From NCBI GenBank assembly GCA_021735655.1, contig JAIPGM010000002.1, forward strand, positions 258,747-322,746: a DNA stretch of 64,000 nt, read 5' to 3'. Positions within the stretch are counted from its first letter, which is position 1, and each line of letters begins with the position of its first letter. The translations under genes and the position numbers were made by a program. Of the stretch, positions 374 to 14,219 are shown piece after piece. Origin of the DNA: Candidatus Omnitrophota bacterium. Lineage in GTDB: Bacteria; Omnitrophota; Gorgyraeia; Duberdicusellales; 4484-171. The notes below the pieces were generated by a model. It made no database searches. It saw nothing but the letters and a program-made list of their open reading frames with translations, and had not been told where the DNA came from.

Positions 374-1612
374 TTAGGGCATCTTACGAATAGCTTCGAC
401 CCGTTTCAATACCGGCGGATGACTATAATCCAAAAATACCTTTAATCGATGCGGGCTTAAATTAGAAAGATTGTTTACAGTGAGCTTTTTAAGCGCCGAG
501 ATAAAGGCCTCCGGATTTTGATAGGTCCTTACCGCATAGCGATCAGCTTCATATTCATGTTTTCGCGAAAGCAAATTACCGAATATTGAAAAAATAAAAC
601 TAATTGGTGTATAAAGGAAGCTAAAGAATATAAGCCCAGCGTAAACTGATATTTCATCCATTCTAAAAGCATTGAATAGCCCAGGATTTTTTATAAAAAA
701 TGAAAGCAGGTAAAACATCAGACCTTTAGTTAATGCTGAGAGTAAAAGACGTTTTATAATATGTTTCTTTTTATAGTGGCCAACTTCATGTGCTAAAACA
801 GAAACAATTTCTTCAGTAGTGTGTTTTTGAATTAAAGTGTCAAATAAAGCAATCCGACGAGATTTGCCTAAACCAGTAAAAAAAGCGTTAGACTTACTTG
901 ACCGACGCGACCCATCAATTTTAAAAATACCCTTTATCTTGAACTTTTGCGAATTAGCATAATCGCTAACCGCCTTTTTAAGCTCCCCATCTTCTAAGGG
1001 GGTAAATTTGTTAAAAAGCGGTAAAATTAACACCGGAGCAATAAAAATAAAAAAAGTACTTAAGAGAACCGTAGCCAACCAACACCAAAGCCAAGCTCCC
1101 TGATCGCTAAACTCGACAAAAAGACGTACAATTAAATAGAAAGCCGGACCGGCAATAATTACCAACAATATCCAGTTTTTAATTAGATCAGTAATAAAAG
1201 TTTTTACGGTAGTTTTATTGAATCCATACTTCTCTTCAATAACAAAGGTCTGATAAATAGAAAAAGGTATCTCAATAATTTGAAGTCCGAAAACAATAAT
1301 TCCGGCAAAAATTAAACCGCTAAACTCAATATTTGAGCTCAAATCTCGGGAGATTCGGTCAACTAAATTGAATCCTCCGCTTAGAATAAAAATGATAACA
1401 ACTGTCGTAAAGACGGTTTTTTGAATAAGACTAAAGTAAGTATTTTCTTTAAGGTATTTTTGCGAACGACTATAGTCCTCAGGATTATAATAACCTTCAA
1501 ATTCTGCAGGTAGACTAAAACCAACTGAGGAAATATTTAACATCTCTACGGTCACCCGCAAGACATACTCGCCGATTAAAATAGCTAAAATAATAACTAA
1601 ATAAGGATTCAT
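374..1612 (-). CDS. M48 family zinc metalloprotease, Ste24/CAAX-protease-like, polytopic membrane protein
   Basis: 412 aa with multiple hydrophobic helices. HEVGH zinc motif (LAHEVGHYKKKH) and a downstream EYEADRYA glutamate, which is the typical Ste24-like M48 architecture. Confidence 0.85.
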   Translation of the reverse strand: MNPYLVIILAILIGEYVLRVTVEMLNISSVGFSLPAEFEGYYNPEDYSRSQKYLKENTYFSLIQKTVFTTVVIIFILSGGFNLVDRISRDLSSNIEFSGLIFAGIIVFGLQIIEIPFSIYQTFVIEEKYGFNKTTVKTFITDLIKNWILLVIIAGPAFYLIVRLFVEFSDQGAWLWCWLATVLLSTFFIFIAPVLILPLFNKFTPLEDGELKKAVSDYANSQKFKIKGIFKIDGSRRSSKSNAFFTGLGKSRRIALFDTLIQKHTTEEIVSVLAHEVGHYKKKHIIKRLLLSALTKGLMFYLLSFFIKNPGLFNAFRMDEISVYAGLIFFSFLYTPISFIFSIFGNLLSRKHEYEADRYAVRTYQNPEAFISALKKLTVNNLSNLSPHRLKVFLDYSHPPVLKRVEAIRKMP

Positions 1613-1650
1613 AAAACTATTTATTTTTTGAAGTTGAAACTGACAAGATT

Positions 1651-1840
1651 AAAAAAACCGACAAGGGCTTCACGGTGTGTCTACCGGCAACTCAGCCACC
1701 ATCATAGTCTAAGGCTCATACTCGCAAAGTTGGGGAGCGTTGCGTTTTAGGAGAGCTTGCGAATCATCTCGCCCAAGAACTATCTTAGGTCTGTCAGTTT
1801 TGCGCCCCTTACTTTCGTAAGGTTTGCCCTTATCGGCACC
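1651..1840 (-). promoter_or_regulatory. c-di-GMP-I (GEMM-I)-like riboswitch/leader RNA ending in a U7 tract
   Basis: Minus-strand RNA GCCGAUAAGGGCAAACCUUACGAAAGUAAGGGGCGCAAAACUGACAGACCUAAG... matches the remembered Vc2 aptamer core. The match covers GGGC-AAA, a 6-bp stem capped by a GAAA tetraloop, the G.CGCAAA junction and the CCUAAG receptor half. The 3' end GCCCUUGUCGG+U7 (1668..1651) pairs with the 5' CCGAUAAGGGC (1836..1826). Confidence 0.55.
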
Positions 1841-1843
1841 TTA

Positions 1844-1873
1844 ATTATACAATATTTTTGGTGCTAATTTCAA
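1844..1873 (-). promoter_or_regulatory. Sigma-70-type promoter for the GEMM-like leader
   Basis: Minus strand reads TTGAAA (1873..1868), an 18 nt spacer, then TATAAT (1849..1844). The predicted +1 near 1837 is the first base of the leader helix. Confidence 0.45.
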
Positions 1874-1903
1874 CCCAATATTCAGAATATATATACAATA
1901 TCG

Positions 1904-2981: not shown

Positions 2982-4175
2982 TTAATTTTCCGAAATCGAA
3001 TACCGAACTTTAGATTTTTGTATTTCCAAAGTGCTAGCCAGTTCGGTTTCAGTTACAAACCCGAGTTCTTTTAAAATTTCTCCAAGCATAATTCCTCTTT
3101 TCCAATGAATTAAAAGAGCTTCATCGAGCTGATTTTGAGAAATTGCCTTTCGTTCAATTAATATCTGACCTAAAGGTTTATCATTGGTTGTCTTTCGATG
3201 ATAGATTTCCGGTGTTGCGTCTTTATTTGTTTTGGTGTCACGACGATCAACCATAAATTTGCTCTCAGGGATAGTTTTGAGGTAACGCTTTATTTCGGTA
3301 ACTTTTTCATTAAGCTGAATCATATTTTCGATACCAGAAGTGTACTCTCGATTGACTACGGCAATCGAAATTGTCATCAAAGGTGTATTTGTTAATTTAC
3401 GAGTTCGATCGCGATTAACCACAAAACCTTGGTTGCGATCTATTTCAGAGTAATGAAAAGGAATAATCGTATCGAAACTTTTAATAAAATTGTGGCATAT
3501 TTGTGCGTATTTATCCATGGTGCTGATAAAAACAAAATCATCTCCTCCAATATGACCGATAAAATCATCAGAATTTCCGAATTTTTTTACCGCGTCAATT
3601 AACAAGTGAGTTGTATGAAGAATTACTCCGTCACCTTTACGGTAGCCATAGACATCATTGAAAGATTTAAAATTATCAATATCTAAATAAGCAAATGAAA
3701 ATGGTTTTCCAGTTTTAAACTTTTCATTTAAGGCATCCTCAAATATTTTAGCACCAGGAAGACCAGTTAAGGAACTCGCATAAATACTGTGTTGGGCGCG
3801 TCTTGCAGCCATTTCAATTCGAATACGTAAATCAAGCGGGTCTGGTGGTTTTATCAAATAATCATCGACTCCTTGCTTTAGACTTAATAATTGAGCGCGT
3901 AATTGCCGCTTATTGATTAAAGTTATGACCGGAGTAAAAGCAGTGGCAAAATTTTCTTTTAAAAGCCGACACATGGCTAATTGTTCTTTACGGGCTGATT
4001 GAATATCAATGACTATGACATCAGGGGAAATTCTTTTTATTTTTTCGATATCTTGCGGTTGAGTAAATTCACGTAGGAAAACTTCGTATCCCCAACCGTC
4101 AAAACAAAAGCGCAGAACCTCTTTTAATTGACTATCCGAAGAGATAATTAAAATTTTATGTATAGTATCAATCAT
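2982..4175 (-). CDS. Response regulator receiver - GGDEF-type diguanylate cyclase (GGDDF variant) - C-terminal MshEN-like domain
   Basis: REC domain (ILIISSD...DVIVIDI...PVITLI...DDYLIKP). GGDEF domain (LTGLPG, YLDIDNFKSFNDVYGYRKGDGVI, IGGDDFVF). C-terminal tandem LGxxLxxxxxxxxxxLxxAL motifs (PLGQILIERKAISQNQLDEALLIH / MLGEILKELGFVTETELASTLEIQ) as in T2SSE_N/MshEN c-di-GMP-binding domains. Confidence 0.85.
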   Translation of the reverse strand: MIDTIHKILIISSDSQLKEVLRFCFDGWGYEVFLREFTQPQDIEKIKRISPDVIVIDIQSARKEQLAMCRLLKENFATAFTPVITLINKRQLRAQLLSLKQGVDDYLIKPPDPLDLRIRIEMAARRAQHSIYASSLTGLPGAKIFEDALNEKFKTGKPFSFAYLDIDNFKSFNDVYGYRKGDGVILHTTHLLIDAVKKFGNSDDFIGHIGGDDFVFISTMDKYAQICHNFIKSFDTIIPFHYSEIDRNQGFVVNRDRTRKLTNTPLMTISIAVVNREYTSGIENMIQLNEKVTEIKRYLKTIPESKFMVDRRDTKTNKDATPEIYHRKTTNDKPLGQILIERKAISQNQLDEALLIHWKRGIMLGEILKELGFVTETELASTLEIQKSKVRYSISEN

Positions 4176-4183
4176 TTAAACTA

Positions 4184-7100
4184 TTATACCACTTTCTTCT
4201 GTTCCTCAATTATTTTTTGGGCTATTTCCTTTGGTACCTGGGTGTACTTTTTAAAATGCATTGAGCAACTTGCCCGGCCACTAGATAAAGACCTAAGATT
4301 GGTTACGTAACCAAACATTTCCGAAAGTGGAGCCTCAGCCGAAATTAGCTTTTGGTTACCTTTTGAATCCATACCTAAAATTTTCCCCCGACGCGCACAA
4401 AGATAACCAACAATACCACTAGTATGCTCTTCTGGAGTAAGTACTTCCAAGCTCATGCAAGGCTCAAGAAGAACCGGACTCGCTTTTAAAAAAGCGTTTT
4501 TAAAGCAAGTTCTTGCAGCAATTTTAAACGCTAACTCTGAAGAATCAACTTCATGGTATGAACCATCAACGAGCTTTACCTTAACATCGACCACCGGATA
4601 ACCGGCATAAGAACCTTTTTTCATTGCTTCAATAATACCTTTCTCAACTGCCGGTATATAGTTTTTAGGTATTGCTCCACCTTTAATGCTATCTTTAAAT
4701 TCAAAACCAGCAGCTTCTTCATTAGGAGAAAGCTCAATCGCTACGTGGCCGTATTGGCCTCTGCCTCCGCTTTGCTTAGCATGTTTATACTCTTCGCTAG
4801 TAGACTGAAGGATTGTTTCTTTATAGGCAACTTTAGGCTGACCGGCCTGCGCTGAAACCTTAAATTCTTCCTTCAAACGTTCAACGATTATTTCAAGATG
4901 TAATTCTCCCATACCAGAAAGAATTGTTTCAGAGGTTTCCTCGTCGGTATGAGCGTTAAAAGTGGGGTCTTCTTCTGCTAGTTTAGCTAAACCCTTGGCC
5001 ATCCTATCCTGATCGGAACGACTCTCCGGTTTTATGCTGATTGAAACGACTGGCTCAGAAAATTCAATTGACTCAAGTAATATTGGATTTTGAATGTCAG
5101 AGAGTGTATCGCCGGTTAAAGTGGAACTGAGACCGACAATTGCCGCAATATCACCGGCAAACACTGCGTCAACATTTTCTCGTTGGTTAGCATGCATTCG
5201 AACAATTCTCCCGATACGCTCTTTTTTATTTTTAGTTGCATTTAAAACATAAGTTCCGGCCCTTAAGCATCCCGAATAGATTCGAGCATAGATCAATTTA
5301 CCTACATGCTGGTCAGCTTGGACCTTAAAAGCAAGCGCTGAAAAAAATTCATCATCTTGAGGCTTACGTTCCAAGCTTTTTTCTTTATCATCGGGGTCAG
5401 AACCAATAACTGGCGGAATTTCAGCCGGAGAAGGTAGATAGGCAACAACTGCATCAAGCAAGTCTTGAACACCCTTATTTTTTAATGCTGACCCGCAAAA
5501 AACCGGAACAATCTTATTTGAAACTGTAGCTTTGCGCAAAGCCTCAGTCAGATCGTCTTTGCTGATTGACTCCTCTGACTGTAAGTATTTTTCCATTAAT
5601 TTACCATCATAAGAGGCTACCCGATCAACCAAACTATGGCGGTATCTTTGAGCGATTTCTTTATAGCTTTCATGAATATCTTCCGACCTAATATCTTTGC
5701 CTAAGGATTCGTCATTATAAAGATGCATTTTCATATTAATAAGATCAATTATGCCTTTAAAGTCACCTTCCTTACCGATCGGTATCTGTAAGGCAACTGG
5801 TTTAGCCCCAATAGTATTTTCGATCTCTTCTAAAACCTTAAAAAAATCAGCCCCGACCCGATCCATTTTATTTATAAAGGCTATCTTCGGTACATGATAT
5901 TTATCCGATTGGCGCCATACGGTTTCAGTTTGAGACTCTACTCCTCCCACCGCACAAAATACAGCAACTGCCCCATCTAGGACCCTTAACGATCTTTCAA
6001 CTTCAGCGGTAAAATCAACGTGGCCGGGGGTATCAATAATAGTAATTTGGCAATCTTTCCAACTACAAGTGGTTGCAGCTGAAGTTATAGTTATACCTCT
6101 TTCCTGTTCTTGTTTCATCCAATCCATCTGAGCTGCCCCGTCATGAACTTCGCCGATTTTGTGCGACCGGCCGGTATAGAAAAGAACTCTTTCAGTAAGA
6201 GTAGTTTTCCCAGCATCAATATGGGCCATAATCCCAATATTACGGATCTTGCCCAGTTCTATTTTTCTCTCCGGCAGTGGCTCCTCTACTTTTTTTACTG
6301 CTTCAGGCTTAGGCTCGGCTTGTATTTCTGGTTCTTGAGCCGATAGCTCCGGAGTCACTTCTTCACTTGCGGTTTCAGGTTGCCCTTGGGTCAAATCTTT
6401 AGTTTCACCTTCCTGCCCTTGGATTAAAGATTCGTCTTCCTTTAGCGATTCTTTATCTGAAGGTAACTCTTCAAATTCCTTAGTTTCTGAAATAGGTTCA
6501 CTTGGCTGCGCCTGAACTAACTCATTCTCAAGATTGGAAGATTCTTTTTGAGAATCACCGTCCTCAATTAAAAGAATATCTGCTAACTCATCGTCCTTAA
6601 TAACGCCGCTTCGTTTAATCTCGCGTAATTTATTAAGAATACGAATCCGCTCCTGATCAATTTTTTCGATATCTTTACCTTTTAGCTCCAACTCCTTAGA
6701 TTTAATCTCTAACTCATTTTTTAATTCTTCACTTTGTTCTTCTAAAAGAGAGTACTCTTCTTTAGATACCCATTCGCTTTGACGTTGTTTTTCTTTCATT
6801 TGAGCAACTTCAGCAGCATGTGCGACAGTTTCTTTAGATAGCTGGTGCATTCTTTGAGTCTGATCTTTTAGCTCACTTTCCAAAGAAATAATCTTATCTT
6901 TCAATTGATTGATATTGACTTCACGAATTTTGATTACTTCTTCAGCTTGATCAAGTTCTTTTTTAAACTGCACACTCCGGGAAAACTCTTTCTCTAAATC
7001 CTTTTCCTTAGTAATCAATTTAACTCTCAAAGCCTCATAGGGACCTTTTCCTTTTTTCAAAGTAAGCTGCTGACTATTAAGCCATTTTTTATTGCGGTTA

Positions 7101-7393
7101 ATTTCCTCGCCCAATTCTTTAGCCTTGAGGCTAAGCTTTTGATGCTCATCTTGCAAGCTGAGATACTCAGCCTGAGTTTTTGTTAAGGCGACAATTTCAT
7201 TTTTTAATTTTGTTAGTTCCCTTTTTGAAGATTTAAGGTTTTCTGACAAGGCAGAAATTTTTTGTTGTTGCAAGTCAGGCTTAAGGCCAAACTTTGTACC
7301 CAGAGTACCTTTTAAAACTGAATCATCTTCGTTGTTAACTAAATACAGTACTAGGGCAATCGATACTCCAATTACAACAAAAATTAAAGTCAT
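4184..7393 (-). CDS. Elongation factor G paralog fused to an N-terminal TM anchor, coiled coil and acidic linker (1069 aa)
   Basis: Residues ~375-1069 are a complete EF-G ([31 protein letters not shown], domain [12 protein letters not shown]). Residues 1-21 are hydrophobic ([21 protein letters not shown]). Residues ~40-265 are heptad-like and K/E/L/Q-rich. Residues ~270-375 are an E/P/Q-rich linker. It is one uninterrupted ORF. Confidence 0.9.
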
Positions 7394-13544: not shown

Positions 13545-13790
13545 AAAAAAATTCAGGTAATGTTTCCACGCAAAACCTAAACTTTGCTTCTTACGGCAGG
13601 TCTTCTGACTTCCCTACATCTTTTAGCTACCTTCCCACCTGCATTTTAAAACAGATAGTGGTTTAAATCGCTAAAAGGGCCCTAAAATTATCTCTAGGGG
13701 TCGGGATCACAGCACCGGGAGTGTCTCCGATTCTCACGGAGTTCCCTATTAAGCTCCTTTTGAGCACCGTAAAATTAGCTACTTTTATAC
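13545..13790 (-). promoter_or_regulatory. Cobalamin (B12) riboswitch with terminator expression platform
   Basis: The minus-strand RNA contains GGUGCUCAAAAGGAGCUUAAUAGGGAACUCCGUGAGAAUCGGAG...GCUGU and a B12-box-like ACCACUAUCUG...GCAGGUGGGAAGGUAGC. It ends in the hairpin UUUAGGU...ACCUGAA (13581..13552) followed by U7 (13551..13545). Confidence 0.8.
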
Positions 13791-14146: not shown

Positions 14147-14219
14147 TGCCCCCATCCCGACTCGAACGGGAATTTCAGCCTTAGGAGGGCCGCGCTCTAT
14201 CCTGTTGAGCTATAGGGGC
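14147..14219 (-). tRNA. tRNA-Arg (anticodon CCU)
   Basis: The 73-nt sequence GCCCCUAUAGCUCAACAGGAUAGAGCGCGGCCCUCCUAAGGCUGAAAUUCCCGUUCGAGUCGGGAUGGGGGCA folds by hand into a cloverleaf. It has a 7-bp acceptor stem, GCUC/GAGC D stem, CGGCC/GGCUG anticodon stem, loop CU-CCU-AA and T loop UUCGAGU. CCA is not encoded. Confidence 0.9.

Follow-up and report, generated by a model that had tools for sequence, protein, structure and literature searches.

A c-di-GMP-I family leader with two predicted alternative folds upstream of a Ste24-type M48 protease gene in Candidatus Omnitrophota

The window analysed here is a 64,000-nt stretch of the genome of a Candidatus Omnitrophota bacterium (assembly GCA_021735655.1, contig JAIPGM010000002.1, positions 258,747 to 322,746). 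On its minus strand, the leader between a gene for an MscS channel and a gene for a Ste24-type M48 zinc metalloprotease is, by all sequence-level criteria tested, a member of the c-di-GMP-I (GEMM-I) riboswitch family, a known RNA class. The predicted ligand is cyclic di-GMP (c-di-GMP). The leader is predicted to adopt two mutually exclusive folds, one ligand-free and one ligand-bound, and we give roughly even odds (about 0.5) to an ON switch at this locus, in which c-di-GMP would block a terminator formed by a long-range helix. Five related Omnitrophota lineages keep the promoter, the aptamer, an insert of 69-74 nt, the long-range complement and the U-tract. An earlier note on this DNA had proposed a GEMM-I-like leader with a termination switch, and every sequence feature quoted in it was found in place on the minus strand.

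The aptamer and its promoter

The Rfam covariance model RF01051 (c-di-GMP-I) matches the minus strand at 1838..1683 with E = 1.9e-09 and 60.8 bits, where the gathering score is 35; this bears out the GEMM-I call of the earlier note. All of the model is covered (positions 1-87 of 87), 71 nt are inserted in the apical part of the second hairpin, and the complete aptamer, insertion included, occupies 1683..1838. For c-di-GMP-II (RF01786), which had been named as a second class to look for, the covariance-model search gave no match in the window at the gathering threshold. Unless stated otherwise, the leader features described below lie on the minus strand.

The register of the window aptamer agrees with the description of Vc2, the aptamer of Vibrio cholerae, in PMC11705072. 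In Vc2, the pair G14-C93 tops the closing helix P1a, and G11, G94 and U96 lie within this helix; the ligand is contacted by G20 and C92, C44-G83 is an inter-helix pair, and a GAAA tetraloop is present together with its receptor (PMC11705072). The window has the same closing-helix register (G14-C93), and the ligand-contact nucleotides G20, A47 and C92 as well as the inter-helix pair C44-G83 are all kept at the aligned positions. In the Vc2 structures, A47 intercalates between the ligand bases. The closing helix P1a would pair GCCG (1837-1834) with CGGU (1686-1683); it can form in all six lineages (the window and its five relatives) and, being invariant, offers no covariation.

The first hairpin, P1b (CCUUAC-GAAA-GUAAGG, 1807..1822), was delimited by the RF01051 alignment and by covariation, and its GAAA tetraloop lies at 1816-1813. 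The core junction GGC-GC-AA (G42 G43 C44, G45 C46, A47 A48) is found at 1800..1806, where GGCGCAAA is aligned to the conserved GACGCAAA, and the CGCAAA junction is in place. The second hairpin, P2 (1689..1799 in the RF01051 alignment), bears the insert and the two halves of the tetraloop receptor, CCUAAG at 1789-1784 and CUAUGAUGG at 1707-1699. The sequences of the type 1 architecture are present, namely GAAA on the first hairpin, and CCUAAG with UAUGAUGG (near 1706-1699) in the second; the docking of the tetraloop is a prediction.

Position 20 is a G (1828) in six out of six lineages. In wild-type Vc2, a G at this position makes the aptamer discriminate against cyclic GMP-AMP (cGAMP), and an A is required there by the rule for cGAMP riboswitches (GEMM-Ib) (PMC6140456). 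Because the G is found in every lineage, c-di-GMP and not cGAMP is the predicted ligand.

The alignment consists of six distinct leaders, which are related sequences of one clade. In this alignment 98.9% of the cells of the ligand-bound secondary structure are paired, and nine pairs change on both sides, compared with 3.8 +/- 1.4 in shuffled alignments (none of the 500 shuffles reached the observed value). In P1b, three of the six pairs change on both sides across the lineages and all cells are still paired. The P2 helices (4-6) are 100% paired, with four pairs changed on both sides.

Vc2, which is of the GNRA tetraloop/receptor type, and the window aptamer have in common the full-length model match, the same three-helix junction, the location in a 5′ leader, and the GAAA tetraloop with a CCUAAG/UAUGG receptor. 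Unlike Vc2, the window aptamer has a G instead of an A at position 43 and a conserved insertion of 69-74 nt at the tip of the receptor-bearing hairpin. Four features set the leader apart from the described c-di-GMP-I members: a conserved 70-nt arm with an invariant C-rich loop, a predicted double strand exchange, a host from the phylum Omnitrophota, and an M48 protease gene as the regulated gene.

Transcription of the leader would start from its own sigma-70-type promoter at 1844..1873, with the -35 hexamer TTGAAA at 1873-1868, a spacer of 18 nt, and the -10 hexamer TATAAT at 1849-1844 (11/12 matches). This promoter had been read in the same way in the earlier note, and its hexamers and spacing are identical in the loci that represent the five related lineages (L084, L085, L087, L089, and L090). 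Judging from the promoter spacing, the transcription start probably lies at or near G1837, and an RNA from about 1837 begins GCCGAUAAGGGCAAACC. The gap between the MscS stop codon (1904) and the M48 start codon (ATG, 1612) measures 291 nt.

A separate observation at the promoter is an inverted repeat between the -35/spacer region (window 1861-1874) and a stretch located 5-20 nt past the U-tract (1633-1646, minus strand). The same repeat is found in L087 (3740-3752 / 3970-3982) and in L089 (3724-3735 / 3971-3982), where it is 12-13 nt long; in the window and L090 it reaches about 12/14 when G.U pairs are counted. It shows one U-A to C-G double change (partly by eye), and the downstream arm is missing in L084 and L085. 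As RNA, this repeat could form only on read-through transcripts from MscS, in which it would enclose the whole riboswitch.

Alternative folds and the sign of regulation

The 5′ switching strand GCCGAUAAGGGC (1826..1837) is invariant in the six lineages. It is made up of the 5′ strand of P1a (GCCG, 1837-1834), the junction AUAAG (1833-1829), G20 (1828), and G21-C22 (1827-1826). Its complement is a 3′ switching element, GCCCUUGUCGG(U), at 1657..1668, detected by folding, by the search for inverted repeats and by RNAalifold, and a tract of seven U (U7, 1651..1657) lies directly past the resulting helix. The long-range pairing of CCGAUAAGGGC (1836-1826) with GCCCUUGUCGG (1668-1658) has 11 pairs of the Watson-Crick or G.U type, and one more G.U pair extends it at the end. 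In all six lineages the 3′ element, GCCCUU(G/A)UCGG(C/U), is complementary to the 5′ strand over 11-12 nt, and the inverted-repeat search recovered a 12-mer complement pair in every relative tested. The long-range helix is part of the minimum-energy fold of all six leaders, and the RNAalifold consensus selects it together with the hairpin P4. The helix that the earlier note had drawn between the 5′ end and the segment before the U-tract is therefore conserved throughout the clade and belongs to the thermodynamically preferred fold. Since the helix spans G14-C22, it would preclude the closing helix, occupy G20, and displace the two basal G-C pairs of the first hairpin; ligand binding and long-range pairing would therefore be mutually exclusive.

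P4 (1673..1686), found in the free fold and by RNAalifold, is formed by CGGU (1686-1683), a loop AGACAC, and ACCG (1676-1673). As the same CGGU is also the 3′ strand of P1a, P4 competes with P1a. After the aptamer, P4, the 3′ element and a U-rich tract follow in all six lineages; in L089 an extra hairpin is located in the P4 loop, and the closing pairs are preserved (a U-A becomes U.G).

In the proposed mechanism, the ligand-free leader would form 12 pairs between GCCGAUAAGGGC and GCCCUUGUCGG(U), which lies some 160 nt further downstream, and the 3′ strand of the closing helix, CGGU, would be captured in P4. Upon ligand binding, the GCCG/CGGU closing helix and the binding pocket would form and the downstream element would be released. 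The long-range helix followed by U7 would serve as the stem of an intrinsic terminator, which c-di-GMP would prevent, turning M48 expression ON; the promoter-driven leader would thereby control read-through into the M48 protease gene.

Mutually exclusive helices with a U-tract and a ligand-dependent closing helix P1 are also known from the riboswitches Cd1 (c-di-GMP, OFF) and pilM (cGAMP, ON) (PMC9262584). Cd1 and pilM, however, switch via the 3′ strand of the aptamer ('A') (PMC9262584). In the window, a downstream strand would instead have the 5′ strand ('P') as its partner, with the whole aptamer in between. With P4 capturing 'A', the window would undergo a double strand exchange, and its long-range helix would close a loop of about 160 nt. 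The GEMM-I leaders at L098, L137, L181, and L189 possess a 3′ complement of GAUAAGGG and, like the window, use the same 5′ aptamer strand as its alternative partner. In these four leaders the element is located 10-50 nt past the aptamer and its local partner is a Shine-Dalgarno-like AGGGGG, according to a translational OFF logic; the local partner in the window is instead the GGCC arm before the U-tract, and the M48 leaders lack a Shine-Dalgarno sequence. A general use of 5′-strand complements in GEMM-I leaders was considered and rejected in favour of a subset, as the mean best run was 7.03 compared with 7.04 for shuffled 5′ strands (112 loci).

Two further AT-rich GEMM-I leaders, at L135 (353-389) and L209 (riboswitch at ~5789), possess the GCCGAUAAGGGC 5′ strand, a similar promoter, and a 3′ complement of 12-14 nt; L209 also has a large P2 insert of unrelated sequence. 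Both were tried as guides to polarity and set aside as uninformative, since separate strong terminators form in every modelled state. Going by these models, L135 and L209 may be constitutively terminated c-di-GMP-binding RNAs.

The two possible signs of regulation differ in the role given to the hairpin that the released 3′ element can form by the U-tract. With the aptamer constrained, such a local hairpin forms in five of the six leaders, and in L090 the region is paired differently. In the window it is AAGCC-CUUGUC-GGUUU (1655..1670 in the constrained fold), the counterpart of the hairpin GG(G)CC-CUUGUC-GGCC(C) that the relatives have directly before the U-tract. The window stem AAGCC/GGUUU is weak, at about -2 kcal/mol, with a d-score of -19 (a non-terminator by the d'Aubenton-Carafa formula), it uses part of the U-tract, and the long-range helix ends 0 nt from the U-tract. 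The stem GGCC/GGCC is found in L084 (-6.7 kcal/mol, d-score +6, helix end separated from the U-tract by 1 C), in L090 (-7.1 kcal/mol, d-score +9, 1 C), and in L085 (-6.7 kcal/mol, d-score -47, five nt, CCUAC). L087 and L089 possess GGGCC/GGCCC (-10.2 kcal/mol, d-score +24, two C). Except in L085, the U-rich tract of the relatives thus begins 1-2 C past the helix.

For the window, ON is the likeliest reading because the long-range helix ends at U7 and the released element forms only a very weak hairpin. In the region 1650-1690 of the minus strand, the terminator scan called no canonical intrinsic terminator, defined as a stem of five or more pairs, three or more of them G-C, with a loop of 3-8 nt and a U-tract within 2 nt; the candidate terminator of the window is the non-canonical long-range helix with U7. 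The duplex energy of this helix is uniformly between -21 and -23 kcal/mol in every lineage, and that of the local hairpin varies from -1.7 to -10.2 kcal/mol. In L084 and L085 the distance from the hairpin to the ATG is 8-9 nt, which leaves no room for a separate M48 promoter, so that M48 depends on read-through in these two lineages. In the work of Yarnell and Roberts (1999), pairing in trans to the segment before a U-tract reportedly could trigger release, and by analogy a long-range stem would be physically plausible as a terminator.

The same two folds may also be read with the opposite sign. The local hairpin would then terminate transcription, the long-range helix would act as antiterminator, and c-di-GMP would turn M48 OFF, with the window hairpin being leaky or decaying. 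This OFF switch is possible but somewhat unlikely for the window; evidence from the relatives speaks for it and against ON. In L087 and L089, the local GGGCC/GGCCC hairpin with its U5 is a canonical terminator, called as such by the scan in L087, and their long-range helix, which ends two C before the U-tract, fits OFF better. The hairpin followed by U's is likewise present in L084 and L090, d-scores are positive in L084, L087 and L090, and the long-range helix stops 1-2 C short of the U-tract in these relatives; L084 and L090 are intermediate between the ON and OFF patterns. Further points weigh against ON, some of them also in favour of OFF. The window hairpin keeps its pairing through a G-C to A-U double change, a compensation that hints at selection on the local hairpin; these changes affect two pairs on both sides, all in the window lineage, and constitute a single evolutionary event. 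The other GEMM-I leaders with a 3′ complement of GAUAAGGG employ the same 5′ strand, pair the complement alternatively with the Shine-Dalgarno-like AGGGGG, and follow OFF logic. Among transcriptional riboswitches, OFF switches that work through an antiterminator are in the majority (PMC2258182). The long-range helix itself shows no two-sided covariation and has as its only support two one-sided changes in which pairing is kept (U.G to U-A in L090, and G-C to G.U in the window); two-sided covariation is not expected there, because the 5′ strand is fixed by aptamer function. Finally, the comparison comprises six sequences of one clade, known from sequence and folding.

Nonetheless, an OFF switch fits the window poorly, where the stem of the -2 kcal/mol hairpin would consume part of its own U-tract, and it fits L085 poorly, where the hairpin is separated from the U's by CUAC. 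The supposed antiterminator would also include the terminator's 3′ arm and reach as far as the U-tract, further than antitermination requires, and in the window it should itself terminate. In addition, the strength of the local hairpin is poorly conserved. The proposal of the earlier note that the long-range helix is a terminator, giving an ON switch, fits the window sequence; the local hairpin of the relatives, which had escaped the earlier note and has a terminator call in L087, would make the same helix an antiterminator.

The insert in the second hairpin

At its tip, P2 carries an insert of about 71 nt (1708..1779), which according to the RF01051 alignment and isolated folding is a rod-like extension. 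Its length in four lineages is 71, 74, 69, and 71 nt (RF01051 alignments), in keeping with the second-helix insertion of about 70 nt described in the earlier note. Beyond P2 come a bulge, a short helix and an internal loop, followed by a helix of 9-10 bp that closes a loop of 24-27 nt. In the window the rod consists of AUAGU(U)CU-GGGC...GCCU-AGACUAU, the internal loop, the helix AUUCGCAAG (1764-1756) / CUUUGCGAGU (1729-1720), and a 27-nt loop. Isolated folding gave the same rod for the inserts of the window, L084, and L085; the stems of the insert differ in L087/L089 and in L090. By eye, the inner helix covaries, with a C-G in the window where L084 and L085 have U-A, and its base shows two further double changes (A-U/G-C, and U.G/U-A/C-G).

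The apical loop of the insert carries an invariant C-rich motif, CUCCCCAAC (1729..1737, six-lineage alignment). The only invariant run within the insert is CCCC with a flanking A, inside CUCCCCAA(C). Fold prediction leaves this motif unpaired in five of the six lineages. Four lineages have a pair of C-rich near-repeats, of which the motif is the second. Only one partner recurs at a fixed place in each of the six lineages, namely GGGG(A/G)CGC of the aptamer itself. This pairing would create a pseudoknot confined to the ligand-free state, and as its register varies by lineage we treat it as a lead only. It is conceivable, though unlikely, that the C-rich loop of the 70-nt arm is gated by the ligand, through a pseudoknot in cis with the G-rich strand of the aptamer or through an action in trans.

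Several other identities for the insert were tried and rejected. The earlier note had seen in it an echo of the aptamer motif (GGGC, CGCAAG, and CCUAAAAC), which could have been a nested second aptamer. This idea did not hold, as cmscan of the insert alone (1706-1786) gave no Rfam match at E <= 10 and the echoed strings are not conserved (CCUAAAAC becomes CCAAAAC in L084, and CCCAAAC in L085). A K-turn or C/D-like motif in the internal loop of the window (GAGAUGA / UAUGA) is absent, by eye, in L084 and L085. An H-type pseudoknot between UUGGG of the insert and CCCAA of the loop would, given the strand order, have to span a stem of 5 bp with a loop of 1 nt, and the G-run is already paired in the rod.

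Large P2 insertions are rare in GEMM-I, but not unique. Of 103 listed GEMM-I aptamers with this 5′ motif, 83 have lengths of 70-89 nt; inserts of at least 45 nt, of unrelated sequence, occur in about five. A conserved C-rich apical loop on a peripheral arm is also found in the adenosylcobalamin (AdoCbl) riboswitch (PMC2258182), which is a resemblance only; unlike in that riboswitch, with its control by kissing loop or pseudoknot, no conserved partner of the window C-rich loop was found outside the aptamer.

Two complementarities to the M48 gene were observed alongside. In the M48 coding region, window 982-991 of the plus strand (mRNA 991..982) reads GAUGGGGAGC, a 9/10 complement of the C-rich loop. 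This sequence encodes the conserved stretch PLEDGEL, its conservation at the RNA level is lacking in some relatives, and the number of such matches is within chance. In L084, the 5′ strand of the inner helix (GGGTTCGTAAA, 3882-3892) is complementary to the M48 start-codon region (TTTATGAACCC, 3998-4008) over 11 nt at 91%; this pairing is weaker in the window and L085, absent in L087-L090, and may be due to chance.

The C-rich loop also figures in a different reading, in which the main output would be other than regulated termination. Both folds would terminate or repress alike, and the ligand would alter translation initiation, RNA stability, or the exposure of the C-rich loop, which would act either as a cis pseudoknot with GGGG(A/G)CGC or as the trans seed of a terminated RNA of ~190 nt. 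In its favour, a stem adjoins the U-tract in both states, the insert has CUCCCCAA as its sole invariant run, and the best recurrent partner of this motif is the G-rich strand of the aptamer in all six lineages. Moreover, the ATG of L084 and L085, 8-9 nt from the helix, corresponds to what Barrick and Breaker classify as a dual transcription/translation platform (PMC2258182), and the leaders of L135 and L209 resemble constitutively terminated GEMM-I RNAs with the same 5′-3′ closing helix. We nevertheless consider this reading improbable, given that M48 expression in L084 and L085 needs read-through, that the register between loop and partner varies between lineages and the motif is not enriched elsewhere, and that the M48 leaders lack a Shine-Dalgarno sequence which the loop could imitate or cover.

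It is also conceivable, albeit doubtful, that sister lineages use one aptamer and one 12-bp helix with opposite polarity, ON in the window and OFF in L087/L089, and that the C-rich loop is perhaps ligand-gated in addition. The difference in polarity would rest on three or four point changes at the boundary between the helix and the U-tract.

Distribution, neighbouring genes and significance

A large protein collection contained only six proteins at 64-72% identity to the window M48 protease. The contigs of these proteins have a common gene order, consisting of an elongation factor G (EF-G) paralogue, a response regulator-GGDEF gene, MscS, the gap, M48, and DinB. A gap of 227-326 nt is present in five lineages, namely L084, L085/L086, L087/L088, L089 (= L191), and L090/L091. 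In three relatives the RF01051 model matches with 57.8-61.7 bits, with inserts of 74, 69 and 71 nt. The lineage of protein P0002 (L081-L083), which is nested in this clade and 83% identical to P0004, has a gap between MscS and M48 of 18 nt without a riboswitch. In L081-L083 (gene at 4001), which are closest to L085, the promoter, the riboswitch and the terminator are gone, and an apparent -35 remnant is left. Because it is nested in the clade and yet has this short gap, the P0002 lineage must have lost the riboswitch block. This deletion and the weakened local hairpin of the window could suggest a decaying relic without a current regulatory role in the window genome, which is very improbable, as the window retains the promoter, the 12-nt complement and every nucleotide of the ligand and tertiary contacts, and these elements are conserved across lineages whose M48 proteins share just 64-70% identity.

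Upstream of M48 genes in 80 GTDB loci, with homologues of at most 61% identity from many phyla, a search with two regular expressions found no GEMM-I core. Rfam models likewise found nothing in the 19 closest GTDB M48 loci and in L025, the only locus with a loose match to the regular expressions. A metagenome scan added to the class, among the at least 120 matches listed, only L191, which is identical to L089. By these searches, the association of M48 with the riboswitch is real and appears confined to one small clade. As an aside, a long imperfect palindrome (CCACACCAAUGC...GGUGUGGG) is located upstream of a distant M48 gene (P0010) at L092 ~3800-3900 / L093 1-100, in another gene order and with no riboswitch.

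The gene presumed to be regulated encodes a Ste24-type M48 zinc metalloprotease of 412 aa (374..1612, minus strand), with matches to PF16491 (Peptidase_M48_N, 2e-47) and PF01435 (Peptidase_M48, 7e-37); its sequence is shared, at 100% identity, by an NCBI protein entry from a metagenome-assembled genome (MAG) of Candidatus Omnitrophica. Upstream on the same strand, Pfam identified the MscS channel gene (1904-2962) and a gene with Response_reg and GGDEF domains (2982-4175) bearing the motif GGDDF. These assignments agree with the earlier note, which had placed a Ste24-type M48 protease downstream of the leader and a GGDEF gene two genes upstream of M48. In the response regulator-GGDEF protein, GGDDF replaces GGDEF/GGEEF, Pfam covers profile positions 5-90 of 161, and the last ~100 residues have no convincing Pfam match; an MshEN-like c-di-GMP-binding C-terminus was considered, and Pfam gave it no support.

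Directly upstream of the GGDEF gene, the window encodes an EF-G paralogue of 1069 aa (4184-7393, minus strand), whose first ~380 residues match no Pfam family. This paralogue is long in most relatives (1022-1052 aa), and the L087 gene was called at 707 aa. Elsewhere in the window, a cobalamin riboswitch (RF00174, 81.7 bits, 13578-13786, minus strand) and a tRNA gene (59.3 bits, 14147-14219, minus strand) were detected. A candidate second aptamer at window 26703 (ATCGATAAGGGC) was rejected, as it lies inside an open reading frame of 498 aa and the rest of the motif is missing.

Knowledge of the c-di-GMP-I family itself is unchanged by this locus, which the standard Rfam model detects in a public MAG. 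The literature that was searched contained no report of an M48 protease under a c-di-GMP riboswitch, and no mention of GEMM riboswitches in Omnitrophica. The leader offers a natural test case for three questions: whether a helix closing a structured loop of 160 nt can be a terminator stem, how much weight a large peripheral insertion has in a very well-studied aptamer, and whether riboswitch polarity drifts between close relatives. This leader puts control by a c-di-GMP riboswitch into the uncultured phylum Omnitrophota and links it to a Ste24-type M48 membrane protease, whose gene closely follows those for a response regulator-GGDEF protein and an MscS channel. In these organisms, c-di-GMP signalling may accordingly act, among other things, on how envelope proteins are turned over or processed.

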